A stretch of 64,000 nt of DNA from an uncultured Actinomycetes bacterium (GCA_947085035.1 CAMTUW010000007.1:89960-153959); one strand, 5' to 3'. Positions 37,877-43,997 are shown, counted from the stretch's first letter. Numbers and translations: made by a program. The notes: generated by a model not told the origin, from the sequence alone.

Positions 37877-38001
37877 CTTCAGGGTTGCTGACACGCGACT
37901 ACCTTTCGGGCGACGCAGACACGGACCACCTACCCGGACACTGACTACAGTGTAGGGGATGGCCGCAGAACAGGTGCTGGGCGGTGCTCTCAATCACCAC
38001 C

Positions 38002-41000
38002 TCAGTCAAGCGGTTGCCCCGGCAGGATCGGCCGGTTGAAGCGCTCAAGCAGCTCTGCGGGCGAAGCGGACAGCACCCACGCACGAAACTCTCGGAACTG
38101 TTCGATCTCGTCGAGTCCTTCGGTGTAGCGCACGCTCTGGGCAAGATCCATGCCCACCGGATCGGGAACGAGCGTGAGTCGCCGATACGCGCCGTGGCCT
38201 TCGCCTGTCACGAACCCGAGTTCACGAAAGACCCCGAGCGCGTGCGAGACCCCTCTCTCGTCGAGTCGGCATCCACGATCGAGGCCCGAGCATCCGGCCG
38301 CGAGTTCGGCATTGGTGACCTCGAAACCCTCACCTTCACGGTGAGCTATACCTCTGAGCACGCGGTACAGCGTGGCGAGGTCGTCTCTGCTCGGCGCCAG
38401 CGTTGAGAGAATCGCCTCGTTGATGCGCGCATCCTTCTCGCCGAACAGCAGGTTCACTGTTGAGGAGACGCCATCGCGACCCACGCGCCCGGCCATCTGA
38501 TTGAACTCCACGTCGCTGAAGGGCAGGTGATAGAGAACGACATGGCGGATGTCCGGGATGTTGACGCCTTCGCCGAACGCGCTCGTGGCAATGACGACTT
38601 GGACCTCGCCCGAACGAAACGCGCCCTCGACGGCGTGGCGGACGGAACGCGACAGTCCCCCGTTGTAGAACGCGGTCTTCCGAGCGACCTCGGGAACCCG
38701 TTTGCGCAGCATGCGGGCGAGTCGCACCGAGGCGTCTCGCGAGTTCACGTACACCACGATCTTCTCGCCACACTGTGCGAGGCGGCAGAGGAACACATCC
38801 TTGTCATCGGCGCCCCGTCGATCCTCGATCCCGAGGTTGTCTCGAACGGTGGGGTCCAGCACGAACCGCTCGATTCCAAGCGTCTCGCGGATCCTTTCGG
38901 CGACTTCGTCGGATGCGGTCGCGGTGACGGCGAGAACGGTGGGACCGCCAAGCACGTGCAGGGCCTCGCCGAGTCGCGCGTACGCGGGACGGTTCCCGGC
39001 ACGTGCGAGCCCAACGTGGTGCGCCTCGTCAATGACGACGAACCGGACCTTCTTCGTCGCGGCGAAGCGTTTCGCGTGGAAGTGCAGGAACTCGGGTGTG
39101 GTGAGCACGGTGTCGAGCTCACCGGCGGCCAGGGCGGCGAACGCGGTGTCGCGCTCGCCTTGCGAGGTCTCGCCGGTGACGACCGCCACGCTCAGGCCGA
39201 CTTGGGAGAACACCTCGCTCATGTGATACGCCTGATCGGCCACGAGCGCGCGCAAGGGATACACGAAGACGCTCGCCCCTGCGCCGGACAGGGCGAGGCG
39301 TGCCGCGTGCAGGTGAAAGATCAACGACTTGCCGCGCCCCGTCGCCATCACGGTGAGCGTCGAGGTGCCCTCCGCCAGTGCGGCGAGCGCTTCTGTCTGG
39401 GCCGGATGCAAGTGGTGCTCGCCGATGAACGTGGTTCTCAGGGCAGCCTCGAGTGTTTCGGGCGCGAGCAGGGCCATCTCGCTGCGCCTGGCCTCGCGAA
39501 GGGATTCGTTCAAGATCTCCTCGGCCACCGCATCTCGACGGGACACGAGCACGTTGACGCCCAACGAGCGACCTTCGCCGTCTTTCCCGGTCACGTCGCG
39601 GACTTCGACATCGTATTGGACGCCGCTGTCGATCACCGGCGCCAGCACGGCGGCCAGTCGACGGTTGAGAAACCCGATCTGCGCGCCGTGCGGATCGAAC
39701 AGAGCGATCGCGTTCGCGTCATGCGGATTGTCGGGTTGGCGCTCAAGCCGTAGCGGTGCGCCGGAATCGAGCCGCGCGACCTGATCCTGTCGACCCTCGA
39801 ACGTCACCCCCACGAGCTTCGTGTGAAACGACGGCGCGTCCCCGACACCGGCATACTCCTCGCGGACGAGCAACTCGTCAGCCCTCGCGAACAGGTCGTC
39901 GAGAAGCTCGCCAACGACTCCACCCGGAGCCCTCGCATCATCTCGCACAGCCACCTCTCGCACGATCAGCTGCGCCCTCTTGCGACCGCGCCACTGGTCG
40001 ACCTCGAGCTCGAACGCGAGATCGACCGAGGCGTCTTCGGCGGCCAGTCCCTCGATGTCCTTGCACCGAAAAGCGATCGCCGGCACCGTCGCCGCACCGT
40101 CGTAGGCCGTGAATTTCAGGTGGTCGGCGGACCTGCCCACGCGCTGACGCCCGTTCATGAAGACACCTCGCACCGCGAGCAGGGGCCTGCGATTCCCGTG
40201 ACCGAAGGGCTCGAGCAACGCGATCTCGGAGCCCATCTCGACGCTCACCGTGTCGAGGGCGACCTCGGCATCGACGATGAGAGGCACCTCGAACTGTTCA
40301 GCGGGCAACGCGTCAAGTTGCGCGAGCAGCGCCTTGTGAAACGGCTCCAGGTCGGACTCGAGCAGCGTGAGGCCAACGGCTGCCGCGTGCCCGCCGAAAC
40401 GCTCGAGTAGCGCCGCGCACGACTCGACCGCACGGAAGAGGTCAACGCCGCCGACAGAACGACCAGACCCCCGCGCGACACCGTCGGCTATCGAGAAGAC
40501 GATCGTCGGGACGCCGTAGGCGCTCGCGAGTCGAGAGGCGACGATTCCCTTGACGCCCTCGTGCCAACCCTCGCCCGCCACCAGAAGCGCGCGCTCGCCA
40601 TCGTACGTTCGCTCCGCGACCGCTGTTGCGGCCTGGGCTAACTCGGCTTCGACCGCCTGTCTCGCGCTGTTGTGTCCCTCGAGTGCGTCCGCGCACTCCT
40701 GTGCGCGCGCAGGATCGTCGGTCATGAGCAACTCAAGTGCGACTGCGGGATCCGCCATCCTCCCGGCCGCGTTCAGACGAGGCGCGAGCGCGAACGCGAT
40801 CTGGTCGCTCGCGAGAGTGGCGGTGTCGACTCCGGCAACCGCACTGAGCGCACTCAGGCACGCGCGAGGCGATCGGCGCACCAGTGCGATCCCATCGGCG
40901 ACGAGCGCGCGGTTCTCGCCGGTGAGCGCTACGACGTCGGCCACCGTGCCAAGCATCGCGAGGTCCGTGAGCGTGCGCCACACGGATTCATCGCCGGTGA

Positions 41001-41643
41001 GTCGACCGACCGCGTGCACGAGTTTGAGGGCGACTCCGGCCCCGGCGAGGTTGCGCGAGGGGCAGTCCGGATGAAGCTTCGGATTCGCCACCGGCACGCC
41101 CGTCACGACGTCCTCGCCGGGCTCGTGGTGGTCGGTGACCACGACATCGACCCCCCGGGCGAGCAGTCCACTCACCTCACACGCAGCGGAAACACCGCAG
41201 TCGACGGTGACGATCAGTGACGGCGAGAAGATGAGTGCGCGCTTCACCGCGACGTCGGTGAGCCCGTAGCCTTCGCGGAAGCGATGCGGAACCATGACGT
41301 CGACGCACGCGCCCAGCAGCGCGAGCCCGCGCGCGGCGACAGCGGCGGCGCTGACGCCGTCAAGATCGAAATCGCCGAAGACGAGTATCCGCTCGCCCGC
41401 ACGAATCGCGGCGGCGACCCGCTCCGCCGCAGCATCCATCCCGGGAATCACGGACGGATCGAGCCAGTCACGCTCGAGCGTGGGCTCCAGGAACGCCTCA
41501 ACGTCGGCCGCGGTGAGAACCCCCCGCGACACGAGGATGCGCGAAGTGATCGCCGAGAGGCCCAGTTCGGCCGAGATCGCCGATGCTGCGCTCTCGTCGA
41601 ACGGGGCTACCGACCAGGGGTTTCGGGGGCATGCGTTGTTCAT
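38002..41643 (-). CDS. recJ: RecJ (DHH/DHHA1 ssDNA exonuclease) - HIRAN - RecQ-like DEAH helicase fusion protein
   Basis: A single uninterrupted 1213-aa ORF. Residues 1-~568 carry RecJ motifs (DFDLDG, VDCG, TDHH, AGAGVA, GGHAAAVG). Residues ~606-703 look like HIRAN ('LVGVTFEGRQ...QPDNPHDANAIAL...IGFL'). Residues ~735-1075 form an SF2 helicase (Walker A 'ATGRGKS', 'IDEAHH', 'TATA', 'QMAGRVGRDG'). Confidence 0.85.
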   Translation of the reverse strand: MNNACPRNPWSVAPFDESAASAISAELGLSAITSRILVSRGVLTAADVEAFLEPTLERDWLDPSVIPGMDAAAERVAAAIRAGERILVFGDFDLDGVSAAAVAARGLALLGACVDVMVPHRFREGYGLTDVAVKRALIFSPSLIVTVDCGVSAACEVSGLLARGVDVVVTDHHEPGEDVVTGVPVANPKLHPDCPSRNLAGAGVALKLVHAVGRLTGDESVWRTLTDLAMLGTVADVVALTGENRALVADGIALVRRSPRACLSALSAVAGVDTATLASDQIAFALAPRLNAAGRMADPAVALELLMTDDPARAQECADALEGHNSARQAVEAELAQAATAVAERTYDGERALLVAGEGWHEGVKGIVASRLASAYGVPTIVFSIADGVARGSGRSVGGVDLFRAVESCAALLERFGGHAAAVGLTLLESDLEPFHKALLAQLDALPAEQFEVPLIVDAEVALDTVSVEMGSEIALLEPFGHGNRRPLLAVRGVFMNGRQRVGRSADHLKFTAYDGAATVPAIAFRCKDIEGLAAEDASVDLAFELEVDQWRGRKRAQLIVREVAVRDDARAPGGVVGELLDDLFARADELLVREEYAGVGDAPSFHTKLVGVTFEGRQDQVARLDSGAPLRLERQPDNPHDANAIALFDPHGAQIGFLNRRLAAVLAPVIDSGVQYDVEVRDVTGKDGEGRSLGVNVLVSRRDAVAEEILNESLREARRSEMALLAPETLEAALRTTFIGEHHLHPAQTEALAALAEGTSTLTVMATGRGKSLIFHLHAARLALSGAGASVFVYPLRALVADQAYHMSEVFSQVGLSVAVVTGETSQGERDTAFAALAAGELDTVLTTPEFLHFHAKRFAATKKVRFVVIDEAHHVGLARAGNRPAYARLGEALHVLGGPTVLAVTATASDEVAERIRETLGIERFVLDPTVRDNLGIEDRRGADDKDVFLCRLAQCGEKIVVYVNSRDASVRLARMLRKRVPEVARKTAFYNGGLSRSVRHAVEGAFRSGEVQVVIATSAFGEGVNIPDIRHVVLYHLPFSDVEFNQMAGRVGRDGVSSTVNLLFGEKDARINEAILSTLAPSRDDLATLYRVLRGIAHREGEGFEVTNAELAAGCSGLDRGCRLDERGVSHALGVFRELGFVTGEGHGAYRRLTLVPDPVGMDLAQSVRYTEGLDEIEQFREFRAWVLSASPAELLERFNRPILPGQPLD

Positions 41644-41722
41644 CGACCCATCCTAGACGAAGGGACCGACACCGGCGTCCGGCATCGGCCCCTTCGGGAT
41701 TCGAAGTCCCACTGCACCGAAC

Positions 41723-42631
41723 TTAAGCGGCCGCGTACTTCTTGCGCAGCGCCGCGAACTTGGGCTCGGTCTCTTTCCACATCGCGTAGAGCGGAGACGC
41801 AACCCCGATCGTGGAGTACATCCCCACAGTGATGCCGATCGTCAGGGCGAGAGCGAAGTCACGAAGCGTGTCTCCACCCCAGAACAGCATGACCACGACC
41901 GGGATGAGCGACGTGACAGAAGTGTTAACCGAACGCACGATGACCTGGTTGACAGAAGCGTTCGCCATCTGCATGAACGACTGCTTGACGATGTGCTGGC
42001 TGTTCTCCTTGATGCGGTGGAACACCACGACGGTGTCGTAGAGCGAGTACCCGAGAATCGTCAGCACTGCCGCGATGGTGTTGGGGGTGAGCTCATAGCC
42101 GATCAGCGCGTAGATGCCCAGCGTGATCACGATGTCGTGTATGAGCGCGACGACCGATGTGATCGACATCTTGTACTCGAAACGCACCGAGATGTAGAGT
42201 AGGATGGCACCGATCGACAACGCCAAAGCCAGGATCGCCCGGTTTGTGATGTTGGCGCCCCAGCCGGGACCGATCGTGGTCACCCGAAACGACTCGCTCG
42301 GGATGCCGGTCTTGACTGCGACCTTCTCGGCTTGCCCGGCCGCAACCCGAGGGTCCGTCACGTCAGTGCGCACGATGAAGCCCTCTGAGCCCTGGAACTC
42401 GGTGGTTTGGATGTTGGCGCCGGAGACGCCGGCCTCTGTGAATGCAGAGCGCATCTGCTCGATGGAGACTCCGCGTGCGTCCTCGACGTTGATAGCGGTG
42501 CCGCCCTGGAACTCGATGCCGAACGTGAGGCCCTTGATGGCGAGGGCGCCGATCGCGACTACCAGCAGAATCGCCGAGAAGGCGAACATGTACTTTCGGT
42601 TTCCGAGGAATTCGATGGTGGGTCTACGCAT
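41723..42631 (-). CDS. secF: Protein translocase subunit SecF
   Basis: The N-terminus 'IEFLGNRKYMFAFSAILLVVAI', 'GIEFQGGT' and six TM segments. The ATG at 42631 overlaps the secD stop. The ORF track extends to 42676. Confidence 0.9.
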   Translation of the reverse strand: MRRPTIEFLGNRKYMFAFSAILLVVAIGALAIKGLTFGIEFQGGTAINVEDARGVSIEQMRSAFTEAGVSGANIQTTEFQGSEGFIVRTDVTDPRVAAGQAEKVAVKTGIPSESFRVTTIGPGWGANITNRAILALALSIGAILLYISVRFEYKMSITSVVALIHDIVITLGIYALIGYELTPNTIAAVLTILGYSLYDTVVVFHRIKENSQHIVKQSFMQMANASVNQVIVRSVNTSVTSLIPVVVMLFWGGDTLRDFALALTIGITVGMYSTIGVASPLYAMWKETEPKFAALRKKYAAA

Positions 42632-43997
42632 CTGCGACACCCCCCTTCCCAGCAAAGCCAGCGGGCACGGCGGCACGCTCCTTGGGGATTCCCCAGAATC
42701 TGGGAGCCTTGGGCATGAGGTTCTCGGCGAGCAGCATGATCATCGGACGCTTGAAGACGAACATCATGGCAATATCGCACATGATTCCGATCATGAGCGT
42801 GAGCGCAAAGCCCTTCACCGGGCCGATCGCGATGAAGTACAACGCGGAGGCCGAGACGAGCGTCACGAGGTCGGCGTCAACGCTCGTCATGATTCCGTGC
42901 TTAGAGCCCGAGTTGGCCGCCGAGCGAATGGTCTTTCCCGCAGCGATCTCCTCTTTGACGCGCTCGAGTATGAGGATCGACGAGTCTGCAGCCAAACCTA
43001 TGACGAGCACGACACCGGCGATACCCGGCAGCGTGAGAGCGAACACCCCCATCCGAGACATCAGCGCGAGAATACCCATGAACAGGGACGCGAAGGTGAT
43101 CAGCGCTCCCACCGTCACGAGCCCCATGCCGCGATAGAAGACAACGACGTACACGCACACCAGTCCAAGTCCGACAAGCCCCGCGAGCAGTCCGCGACGC
43201 AGGGAGTCCTGCCCCAGGGTCGGGCCAACGGCGCGTGATTCCGATGGCAACAGCGTCACCGGCAGGGCGCCCGCCTCAAGCACTGTCTTGAGGCGCTTGG
43301 CTTCTTCAGCCGTGAATCCACCTGAGATCGCCGTCTGTCCGTCAAGAATGGCCGAGCGGATCGAGGGTGCGGATCTCACGACACCGTCAAGCACGATAGC
43401 GACTCTGCGCCCGATGCTCTTCGACGTGTAATCCCCCCACACCTTGGCCCCCGCCGGATCCATCGACAGAGTGACTTCGATCTCGGCGGTCTGCGGGTTC
43501 TGCGAGACAGCAGCGCTCTTGATCGCGCCACCCGTGAGGGGCACTCCATCAAGCTCGATCGGCCTGTACGTGCCCGGTTTCAGAGTCACGTTCTCCTGAT
43601 TCGCCTCGATGGCGGCGATGGTCCCCGTATCGGAAATCGACCCCACATCGACGAACTCGAGACGCCCGGTCTCGCCTAGAACAGCAAGTGCCTCCTCCGG
43701 ATTACTGACACCCGGAATCTGGATCATCAGCGAGTCATTGCCCGCACGCTGAACCGTCGCCTCCTTGACGCCGAGGCCGTCCACGCGGTTGATGATGATG
43801 AGCTCGGCACGCTCCATGACGGCCGCAGTCACCGCAGTATCGCTCGTTTCTTGCGCGGTGAGGATCACCGAGAGTCCGCCCTGGATGTCGAGACCCTGCG
43901 TGATGCGACTGCCGGGAGGCCAGAACAGCGCCCACGAACCGATCAGAAGTACGACCGTGATGATGAGAAGTAGCACGTTCTGTTGCTTCTGATCCAT
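42624..43997 (-). CDS. secD: Protein translocase subunit SecD
   Basis: 'GLDIQGGLSV', a periplasmic-type P1 domain and a C-terminal six-TM bundle. The ATG at 43997 has a GGAAGG RBS 4 nt after the yajC stop. The ORF track extends to 44123. Confidence 0.9.
   Translation of the reverse strand: MDQKQQNVLLLIITVVLLIGSWALFWPPGSRITQGLDIQGGLSVILTAQETSDTAVTAAVMERAELIIINRVDGLGVKEATVQRAGNDSLMIQIPGVSNPEEALAVLGETGRLEFVDVGSISDTGTIAAIEANQENVTLKPGTYRPIELDGVPLTGGAIKSAAVSQNPQTAEIEVTLSMDPAGAKVWGDYTSKSIGRRVAIVLDGVVRSAPSIRSAILDGQTAISGGFTAEEAKRLKTVLEAGALPVTLLPSESRAVGPTLGQDSLRRGLLAGLVGLGLVCVYVVVFYRGMGLVTVGALITFASLFMGILALMSRMGVFALTLPGIAGVVLVIGLAADSSILILERVKEEIAAGKTIRSAANSGSKHGIMTSVDADLVTLVSASALYFIAIGPVKGFALTLMIGIMCDIAMMFVFKRPMIMLLAENLMPKAPRFWGIPKERAAVPAGFAGKGGVADA

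Follow-up and report, generated by a model that had tools for sequence, protein, structure and literature searches.

A RecJ exonuclease joined to a HIRAN domain and a RecQ-like helicase in a single chain at the recJ locus of Coriobacteriia

The gene described here lies in a stretch of 64,000 nucleotides from an uncultured Actinomycetes bacterium (GCA_947085035.1 CAMTUW010000007.1:89960-153959), referred to below as the window, where it occupies positions 38002..41643 of the minus strand. From its ATG start, it encodes a protein of 1213 amino acids followed by a stop codon, in which a RecJ exonuclease, a HIRAN domain, a RecQ-like helicase and a winged helix are arranged one after the other. Translation of this open reading frame (ORF) yielded 1213 codons with zero internal stops, and six Pfam domains were found in the product, each scoring over its gathering cut-off. 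A first-pass annotation, based on the sequence of the window, had proposed that one continuous ORF joins three modules, namely RecJ, HIRAN and a RecQ-like superfamily 2 (SF2) helicase. The ORF is indeed continuous, all three modules were recovered in profile searches, and the motifs quoted in the proposal all lie where they had been placed. The motifs located are DFDLDG, VDCG, DHH, GGH, NPHD, MATGRGKS, DEAHH and QMAGRVGRDG. A protein identical to that of the window is carried by three contigs in the protein cluster search (cluster P0001).

The RecJ 5'-3' single-stranded DNA exonuclease core spans residues 30-563 (39955..41556, minus strand, as for all features of the gene given below), as judged from NCBIfam, Pfam, PDB and Foldseek comparisons. 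It matched the RecJ equivalog model TIGR00644 of NCBIfam with 452.3 bits, against a cut-off of 396.9, and covered model positions 2-545 of 546. Pfam divided the same region into DHH (residues 85-233, 65 bits), DHHA1 (residues 354-441, 49 bits) and RecJ_OB (PF17768, residues 457-562, 81.8 bits). The catalytic motifs are DFDLDG (91-96), VDCG (147-150), DHH (171-173), D236 and GGH (417-419), which supply the metal and phosphate ligands, and all of these motif residues were invariant across an alignment of 54 homologues. When the RecJ part was compared to the PDB by phmmer, the solved RecJ structures 8y30 and 5f54 were matched at 1e-83 and 4e-80, respectively. An AlphaFold2 (AF2) model of residues 14-1213, calculated with 54 sequences and having a mean pLDDT of 86 and a pTM of 0.61, gave corresponding results in Foldseek, with E-values of 6.5e-41 for the S. 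aureus enzyme (8y30) and 2e-40 for 5f56, while all RecJ matches, which span S. aureus, D. radiodurans and T. thermophilus, fell between 6.5e-41 and 3e-27. By these profile and motif comparisons, the N-terminal part is a bona fide, equivalog-level RecJ, for which 5'-3' exonuclease activity is predicted.

RecJ is followed by a short helical linker containing the segment '..LFARADELL..' (residues 576-602, 39838..39918), which forms two helices in the AF2 model. The same 'LFAQA..' segment constitutes the N-terminus of two standalone HIRAN-helicase proteins, P0160 and P0151, that are considered further below. As these helices begin the standalone proteins, the linker is part of the HIRAN-helicase module and not of RecJ, and the boundary between the two is thus located at about residue 575.

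The HIRAN domain itself covers residues 603-703 (39535..39837) and contains an NPHD motif at residues 639-642. Pfam assigned residues 606-685 to HIRAN (PF08797) with 49.1 bits, against a cut-off of 24.7. Moreover, structures of the human HLTF HIRAN domain (2mzn, 4xzf, 5bnh and 4s0n) were matched directly by phmmer at an E-value of 4e-6, via the segment 'LRLERQPDNPHDANAIALFDPHGAQIGFLNRRLAAVLAPVID'. In HLTF, the Asp of the corresponding NPYD motif contacts the 3'-OH. The HMMER alignment places NPHD over NPYD, such that H641 is the equivalent of HLTF Y93 and D642 that of the Asp, and both N639 and D642 were invariant in the 54 homologues. In the cavity of the HLTF HIRAN domain, a dinucleotide of single-stranded DNA is stacked between Y72 and Y93 (PMC4666394). 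By manual alignment of the two sequences, F615 is the equivalent of Y72, a position that lies outside the HMMER alignment. On the strength of these matches, the domain can be considered a bona fide HIRAN, and, by analogy with HLTF, it may bind a free 3' end.

The HIRAN domain is followed by a RecQ-like SF2 DEAH helicase core at residues 733-1085 (38389..39447), in which motif 0 (FIGEHHLHPAQ, 739-749), motif I (MATGRGKS, 766-773), motif II (DEAHH, 872-876) and motif VI (QMAGRVGRDG, 1049-1058) are readily recognized. Pfam placed DEAD at residues 747-915 and Helicase_C at residues 951-1058, each with 83 bits. All four motifs were invariant in the 54 close homologues, and most of the 50%-identity representatives described below carry the helicase motifs as well. 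As for family membership, the top NCBIfam models over residues 733-1087 were RecQ models, all of which scored under their cut-offs (recQ_fam TIGR00614 with 156.9 bits against 219.8, and recQ TIGR01389 with 168 against 640). The nearest relatives of the helicase part in the PDB are RecQ, RECQ4, WRN and RECQL5, and Foldseek matched the AF2 model to the RecQ catalytic core 4tmu at an E-value of 3e-19, with the RecQ-family cores (C. sakazakii and E. coli RecQ, RECQL5, BLM, WRN and RECQ1) ranging from about 1e-17 to that value. Profile matches to WRN, RECQ1 and BLM, furthermore, run some 40 residues beyond motif VI, which fits a RecQ-clade origin of the helicase.

E. coli RecQ contains an RQC region with a four-cysteine Zn-binding module. 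Such a module is absent here, with only two cysteines in residues 1086-1213 of the window protein, with the AF2 model showing the tail as helices and a winged helix, and with no cysteine among the conserved columns in alignments of 30, 40 or 54 homologues. An HRDC domain was not matched by Pfam at E <= 0.1, and the chain ends 128 residues past the helicase core. The first-pass annotation had described a RecQ-like helicase with a RecQ-type motif VI. Both points stand, whereas the TIGR00614 score falls short of the cut-off, and the Zn module and HRDC are missing. Judged by these sequence features, the helicase is RecQ-like and not a bona fide RecQ.

Beyond the helicase core, a tail of helices, a winged helix and a long helix comprises residues 1086-1201 (38041..38388). 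In a separate AF2 model of residues 1061-1213 (pLDDT 81), two helices are followed by the winged helix, predicted where RecQ would have its own, and then by the long C-terminal helix. The best Foldseek matches of this model were generic winged-helix proteins (ArsR/SmtB, Fur and MarR) at E-values of about 6e-3, and no RecQ winged helix was among the top 50. With matches of this kind, and with no conserved cysteine cluster, the tail was rejected as a specific match to a RecQ RQC or HRDC region. The protein then ends with a conserved peptide, FNRPILP (residues 1202-1208, 38020..38040), with a consensus of NRPIxP that is near-invariant in fused and standalone family members alike. Its mean identity to the query reaches 98% in 53 close homologues, and P1205 and P1208 are kept in at least 90% of a diverse set of 40 sequences. 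The peptide sits at the edge of the low-confidence, disordered end of the AF2 model and looks like a docking peptide, although we know of no motif that it fits. Taken together, the extension C-terminal to RecJ amounts to about 640 residues, comprising HIRAN, the RecQ-like SF2 helicase, the winged helix and this terminal peptide.

The end of the helicase and the tail also bear a relation to PF10141, the C-terminal domain of about 200 residues found in Firmicutes-type RecJ, which aligns co-linearly with the second half of RecA2 and the winged-helix tail. In the window protein, the match covers residues 1025-1181 (model positions 52-185; the segment of residues 1025-1201 corresponds to window positions 38041-38568) and, with 15.8 bits, stays under the cut-off of 26.4. 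Matches were likewise obtained in P0122 (residues 1140-1207, model 121-184), P0128 (residues 1150-1249, model 93-189), the Coriobacteriaceae metagenome-assembled genome (MAG) L062 (residues 898-1047, model 55-180) and P0167, where residues 994-1169 matched model positions 32-185 of 202 with 31.2 bits, over the same cut-off of 26.4, at an E-value of 2.3e-7. Ten of 40 diverse members matched PF10141 at E <= 0.1. Searching the PDB with a profile of the tail returned residues 669-728 of S. aureus RecJ 8y30 only at an E-value of 0.098, and once the helicase end was included in the profile, helicases swamped the list. Nor was 8y30 among the top 50 Foldseek matches of the tail model. That the C-terminal domain of Firmicutes RecJ is a remnant of a fusion-type helicase and winged-helix module is, on these alignments, plausible but unproven.

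The cluster search, in a space of about 5.8 billion proteins, returned more than 120 protein clusters with the same architecture, with identities of 61-75%, lengths of about 1200-1250 amino acids and the same eight precomputed Pfam families. The clusters stem from NCBI, JGI, ENA and Logan. The named clusters are all annotated merely as 'single-stranded-DNA-specific exonuclease RecJ' of Coriobacteriia. In a scan using one genome per species, at least 564 confirmed genome loci carry the fusion, and isolates are found among the best 79 of these, including Olsenella porci, O. kribbiana, O. intestinalis, Parafannyhessea umbonata, Kribbibacterium absianum, Collinsella tanakaei and C. aerofaciens. 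In about 75 of the 79 loci, which were fetched, an uninterrupted ORF is followed directly downstream by a relA-sized ORF. The gene is split into two or more ORFs in four long-read MAG loci (L044, L051, L052 and L055), three of which come from one 'MFD' series, and these split copies are probably the result of indel errors rather than true pseudogenes. Neither of the outcomes that the first-pass annotation had named as refuting it was borne out: profile searches returned HIRAN and RecQ-like matches, and the ORF is continuous in well over 100 independent assemblies, isolates included. The fusion is thus widespread, and represents the standard RecJ of a large clade rather than a peculiarity of the window genome.

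The distribution of conservation along the chain follows its modular organization. Of the modules, HIRAN has the highest mean identity to the query in 53 close homologues (74%), followed by the helicase (70%), the RecJ core (65%) and the tail (61%). The two connecting segments are far more variable, with mean identities of 49% and 32%. As the modules are thus well conserved and the connecting segments are not, the modules are under purifying selection, and the junctions serve as linkers. The linker and junction regions align gap-free across the family.

A wider HMMER search with residues 591-1213 against 1.84 billion 50%-identity representatives returned 852 representatives at E <= 1e-30, the top 150 of which nearly all belong to the fusion family, with fused proteins of about 1200 amino acids persisting among them down to 31% identity. 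According to their source labels, the fused members come from Coriobacteriia and from MAGs labeled just 'Actinomycetota', from Candidatus Oleimmundimicrobium (L045, 41% identity, with all domains present), from MAGs labeled Bacillota/Clostridia (MEW6724600.1 and MDD2401180.1) and from MAGs labeled Armatimonadota (MBI4279602.1 and MGQ0568691.1). One further fused member, P0210 (MFW6008189.1), from a MAG labeled 'archaeon', a label that is doubtful, carries a LysM domain (PF01476, 36.8 bits) at residues 647-682, inside the N-terminal part of its HIRAN region. Such an insertion is an odd pairing for a cytoplasmic DNA enzyme. The databases label the family plain 'RecJ', and domain-architecture databases will certainly list the fusion. 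A description of a RecJ-HIRAN-helicase fusion was not found in the literature searched, although it may have been mentioned in journals that were not covered.

The genomic neighborhood is that of a housekeeping gene. Upstream of the fusion gene lie tgt, secD and secF, and downstream lie relA/spoT, a gene for an MBL-fold hydrolase, hisS and aspS, all in the orientation of the fusion gene. This places it in the slot between secDF and relA that the first-pass annotation had named. Its carrier is an environmental member of the Coriobacteriia, for which the fusion gene serves as the housekeeping recJ. At the junction with relA (37985..38004, minus strand), the recJ stop codon TGA (38002-38004) overlaps a Shine-Dalgarno-like sequence, GAGGTGG, and the TTG start of relA follows at 37993, 9 nucleotides beyond the recJ stop. 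Given this overlap near the relA start, recJ and relA are probably co-transcribed and translationally coupled.

Two further observations concern the upstream side. The 79-nucleotide spacer between secF and recJ contains a very stable RNA hairpin (41643-41704, minus strand), with a predicted energy of -43.5 kcal/mol and a z-score of -3.5 relative to shuffled sequences. Its core is an 18-bp stem (41679-41696 paired with 41658-41675), and in the outer stem, part of the recJ Shine-Dalgarno region and the A of the ATG are base-paired. No T-run follows. The hairpin is possibly a control element that acts on recJ translation or stability. As for the preceding genes, the secD and secF ORFs share 53 nucleotides (42624-42676) when both are taken from their first possible start codons, and the real secF start probably lies further downstream.

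Not all relatives have the full set of parts, and three kinds of natural variants were found. The first comprises RecJ-helicase fusions that lack HIRAN, of about 1090-1130 amino acids, in Collinsella, in part of Olsenella and in many other representatives. In the fetched loci, these correspond to L056-L079 (Collinsella and several Olsenella, about 1090-1110 amino acids, e.g., L070:8001-11285 and L064:8001-11294). In a rough neighbor-joining tree of 117 full-length members, the HIRAN-less forms are scattered among HIRAN-bearing branches, and HIRAN has therefore been lost several times independently. From this repeated loss, HIRAN can be regarded as an accessory targeting device.

The second kind is a deep clade (P0243, P0246, P0253, P0255 and P0270) of fused proteins of 1173-1203 amino acids, in which the helicase-shaped region is full-length. 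Two of its members, P0246 and P0270, come from Armatimonadota-labeled MAGs. In these proteins, the Walker A, DEAH and motif VI sequences have been lost while RecJ and HIRAN were kept; for example, 'VISPRSGGER' is found in place of 'VMATGRGKSL'. The region is thus a pseudo-helicase that would have been retained as a scaffold.

The third kind comprises standalone HIRAN-helicase-winged-helix proteins that end with the RPIxP peptide. These are rare, 630-680 amino acids long and found in low-GC organisms. One of them, P0160 (L080:8001-9974), has a prophage-like early region as its setting, in which a cI-like repressor, a small divergent helix-turn-helix (HTH) gene and many small ORFs are found, along with the PHROG families 10048 and 5889. 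Another, P0151 (L081:265-2193), has small ORFs and an HTH_3 gene around it. Scanning IMG/VR with a single protein gave no family match, while a profile scan of the same catalogue returned 33 helicases, of which only one, in L082, is a family member, and that one is itself fused to RecJ. The contig concerned (IMGVR_UViG_3300008147_000049) is catalogued as viral and ends in a host-type, HIRAN-less RecJ-helicase gene (L082:4186-7425); the contig either spans a junction between prophage and host or has been misclassified. With this host-type gene as the lone IMG/VR member, a phage reservoir of the standalone module is unsupported beyond the prophage-like context of P0160.

When considering what such a protein might do, the closest point of reference is the RecF pathway, in which RecJ works with RecQ and SSB (PMC4846377). 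RecJ alone digests 5' overhangs, and blunt or 3'-tailed ends need the 3'-5' helicase RecQ for resection to start (PMC4846377). By analogy, we consider it fairly probable that the fusion carries out in cis the work that RecQ and RecJ share as separate proteins of this pathway. In such a mechanism, the helicase would engage the 3'-terminated strand at a double-strand end, a gap or a stalled fork and, driven by ATP, would move 3'->5' into the duplex. The displaced 5'-terminated strand would be fed to the RecJ core of the same chain and degraded 5'->3', with both activities advancing in the same direction and leaving a 3' single-stranded tail for RecA loading. HIRAN would bind the free 3'-OH, thereby recruiting the enzyme to an end, a gap or the leading-strand terminus of a stalled fork and orienting it there, perhaps shielding the end, and possibly holding it while a loop is spooled out. 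As a 3'-5' helicase and a 5'-3' exonuclease both enter the duplex, joining the two covalently makes geometric sense, and unwinding and degradation of the 5' strand could then be physically coupled. The catalytic motifs are intact, every module is under strong purifying selection, the locus is conserved and the distribution is wide.

This reading has some drawbacks that need to be considered. Strand splitting and its 3'-5' polarity would be properties extrapolated from membership in the helicase family, and, as noted above, this helicase comes without the conserved cysteine cluster of the RecQ Zn-binding module and, by Pfam, without HRDC, while the winged helix adjacent to it is, by Foldseek, only generically winged-helix-like. 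How the helicase exit lies relative to the RecJ entrance has to be read in light of the pTM of 0.61 of the fusion model. The repeated loss of HIRAN, together with the deep clade in which the Walker A, DEAH and motif VI sequences have disappeared, means that neither HIRAN nor the helicase is indispensable and that the helicase scaffold can persist without ATPase activity. Finally, biochemical work on any member of the fusion family was not found in the literature searched.

Of the alternatives, the one that survives best is that the protein is a dedicated processor of stalled forks, with HIRAN docked at the 3' terminus of the newly made leading strand while the nascent lagging strand is unwound by the helicase and degraded by RecJ or, in a variant of the same idea, that the enzyme promotes fork regression ahead of replication restart. 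We regard this alternative, with both of its versions taken together, as possible but rather unlikely. The direct similarity of the domain to HLTF HIRAN (phmmer E 4e-6) speaks for it, as HLTF is a fork-remodeling enzyme and fork reversal needs the HLTF HIRAN domain (PMC4666394). HIRAN is also the most conserved module wherever it is present. In addition, Courcelle and Hanawalt (1999, a study cited in PMC4846377) reportedly described the processing of blocked forks by RecQ and RecJ in UV-irradiated E. coli. Nonetheless, the RecJ-helicase fusion has been kept despite the many HIRAN losses, and its core function is accordingly independent of HIRAN; moreover, no recJ other than the fusion was seen at the canonical locus, so that it presumably covers the general roles of RecJ as well. 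Fork processing is, in any case, compatible with resection in cis, and the two are not mutually exclusive.

It is less probable still that the helicase is not a motor at all and instead acts as a DNA-binding or regulatory scaffold, be it a clamp, a processivity factor or a docking platform, leaving RecJ as the sole catalysis that matters. The deep clade with Armatimonadota-labeled MAGs, which lost the ATPase motifs and kept the helicase-shaped region with RecJ and HIRAN intact, is what such a role would look like, and the co-linearity of PF10141 with the helicase end and tail suggests that non-catalytic remnants can be of use to RecJ. In D. radiodurans RecJ, too, the C-terminal domain has no catalytic part and serves in interaction and orientation (PMC4846377). 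Both the window protein and its relatives, however, have invariant ATPase and helicase motifs, and the helicase shows higher conservation than the RecJ core, as selection for catalysis, rather than for a mere scaffold, predicts. A scaffold-only role may thus be alive for some lineages, while the intact motifs make it unlikely for the window protein.

A function in mobile elements or in anti-phage defense, with a HIRAN-helicase module that came from phages or defense islands and acts on foreign DNA, appears very improbable. It might be suggested by the top PADLOC matches, which are the RecQ-like defense helicases DpdF and PsyrT, by the cI-like repressor and the two PHROG families among the small ORFs around P0160, and by the HTH_3 gene among those around P0151. 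The PADLOC matches are, however, limited to the generic helicase core (e.g., model positions 11-354 of 610), and with secDF and relA as neighbors, membership in a DpdF or PsyrT defense system was rejected. Across hundreds of species, the gene keeps its place in the conserved secDF-recJ-relA housekeeping operon, its distribution looks vertical, no partner defense genes are found near it, and the sole IMG/VR family member is a RecJ-fused, host-type gene. Lastly, an assembly or frameshift artefact joining recJ to a neighboring helicase gene has next to no chance of being correct and is ruled out by the continuous architecture in more than 120 clusters, in isolate genomes and in about 75 of 79 loci, and by the gap-free alignment of the junctions; nothing in the window supports it, and the sequencing errors that do occur (L044, L051, L052 and L055) split the gene, which is the opposite direction.

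The resection in cis that we favor can be set against several known systems. Functionally closest are RecQ and RecJ of E. coli and D. radiodurans, which show the same division of labor that is proposed here by analogy, with a 3'-5' SF2 helicase that unwinds and a RecJ that degrades the 5' strand (PMC4846377). In the fusion, however, the two are covalently linked with HIRAN between them, whereas RecQ and RecJ of model organisms are separate proteins coordinated via SSB, and the helicase differs from RecQ in having neither Zn module nor HRDC and in scoring under the RecQ-family cut-offs. WRN resembles the fusion in combining a RecQ-type helicase with an exonuclease in one chain, and WRN cores are among the best PDB matches. 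Its exonuclease is, however, a DnaQ-like 3'-5' enzyme located at the N-terminus (it is named 'Bifunctional 3'-5' exonuclease/ATP-dependent helicase' in the PDB), whereas that of the fusion is a DHH-family 5'-3' RecJ. WRN and the RecJ-helicase fusions are independent, with opposite nuclease polarities. HLTF and Rad5 resemble the fusion in that HIRAN immediately precedes an SF2 ATPase in the chain, and the direct match to the HLTF domain includes the NPxD motif. HLTF, though, is a Snf2-type double-stranded DNA translocase with a RING domain and without a nuclease, and reverses forks rather than resecting them (PMC4666394), whereas the motor of the fusion is RecQ-like and joined to a nuclease.

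RecBCD, AddAB and AdnAB perform the same job as that proposed here, in that a motor and a nuclease together make a 3' tail, and the fusion would be analogous to them without being a member of their group. Those enzymes are multi-subunit complexes of SF1 motors and PD-(D/E)xK nucleases, while Pfam found no UvrD-helicase or PDDEXK domains in the fusion protein, only SF2 and DHH domains. The long RecJ of Firmicutes, represented by the S. aureus protein (PDB 8y30, 757 amino acids), matches the RecJ part best overall among PDB entries, but has only about 200 residues past the OB fold, with neither HIRAN nor helicase motifs. S. aureus DinG is likewise a bacterial SF2 helicase and exonuclease in one chain (PMC12345164). 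It differs in being an XPD/DinG-type 5'-3' helicase with an N-terminal 3'-5' exonuclease of another fold and polarity and without HIRAN.

In terms of evolution, one could speculate that the RecJ-HIRAN-helicase protein is an old form of RecJ, given its occurrence under Actinomycetota, Bacillota and Armatimonadota labels, that it is a self-sufficient resection machine, and that PF10141 is the decayed remnant of its helicase and winged-helix module, with the motif-less clade as a living intermediate. We offer this idea as a tentative one and hold it to be more doubtful than not by some distance. If true, it would provide a third solution to resection, beside RecBCD/AddAB/AdnAB and the two-protein RecQ and RecJ system, and the link to PF10141, if true, would explain the origin of the C-terminal domain of Firmicutes RecJ.

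The fusion is ordinary in its parts and stands out in their combination, in its commonness and in its natural variants. That RecJ and a RecQ-like helicase are covalently joined in nature offers 'Rosetta-stone' evidence for the two activities working as one unit, and the fusion, being a single protein, would allow the coupling of unwinding and 5'-strand degradation to be dissected without reconstituting a complex. The HIRAN domain between the two modules would, in turn, provide a bacterial system in which HIRAN can be tested at 3' ends outside eukaryotic fork reversal. The HIRAN-less forms, those with dead ATPase motifs and the standalone HIRAN-helicase proteins represent ready-made separation-of-function mutants. 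As the fusion is the standard RecJ of the abundant human gut genera Collinsella and Olsenella, recombination and repair in these genera may be organized differently than in the E. coli and B. subtilis models.

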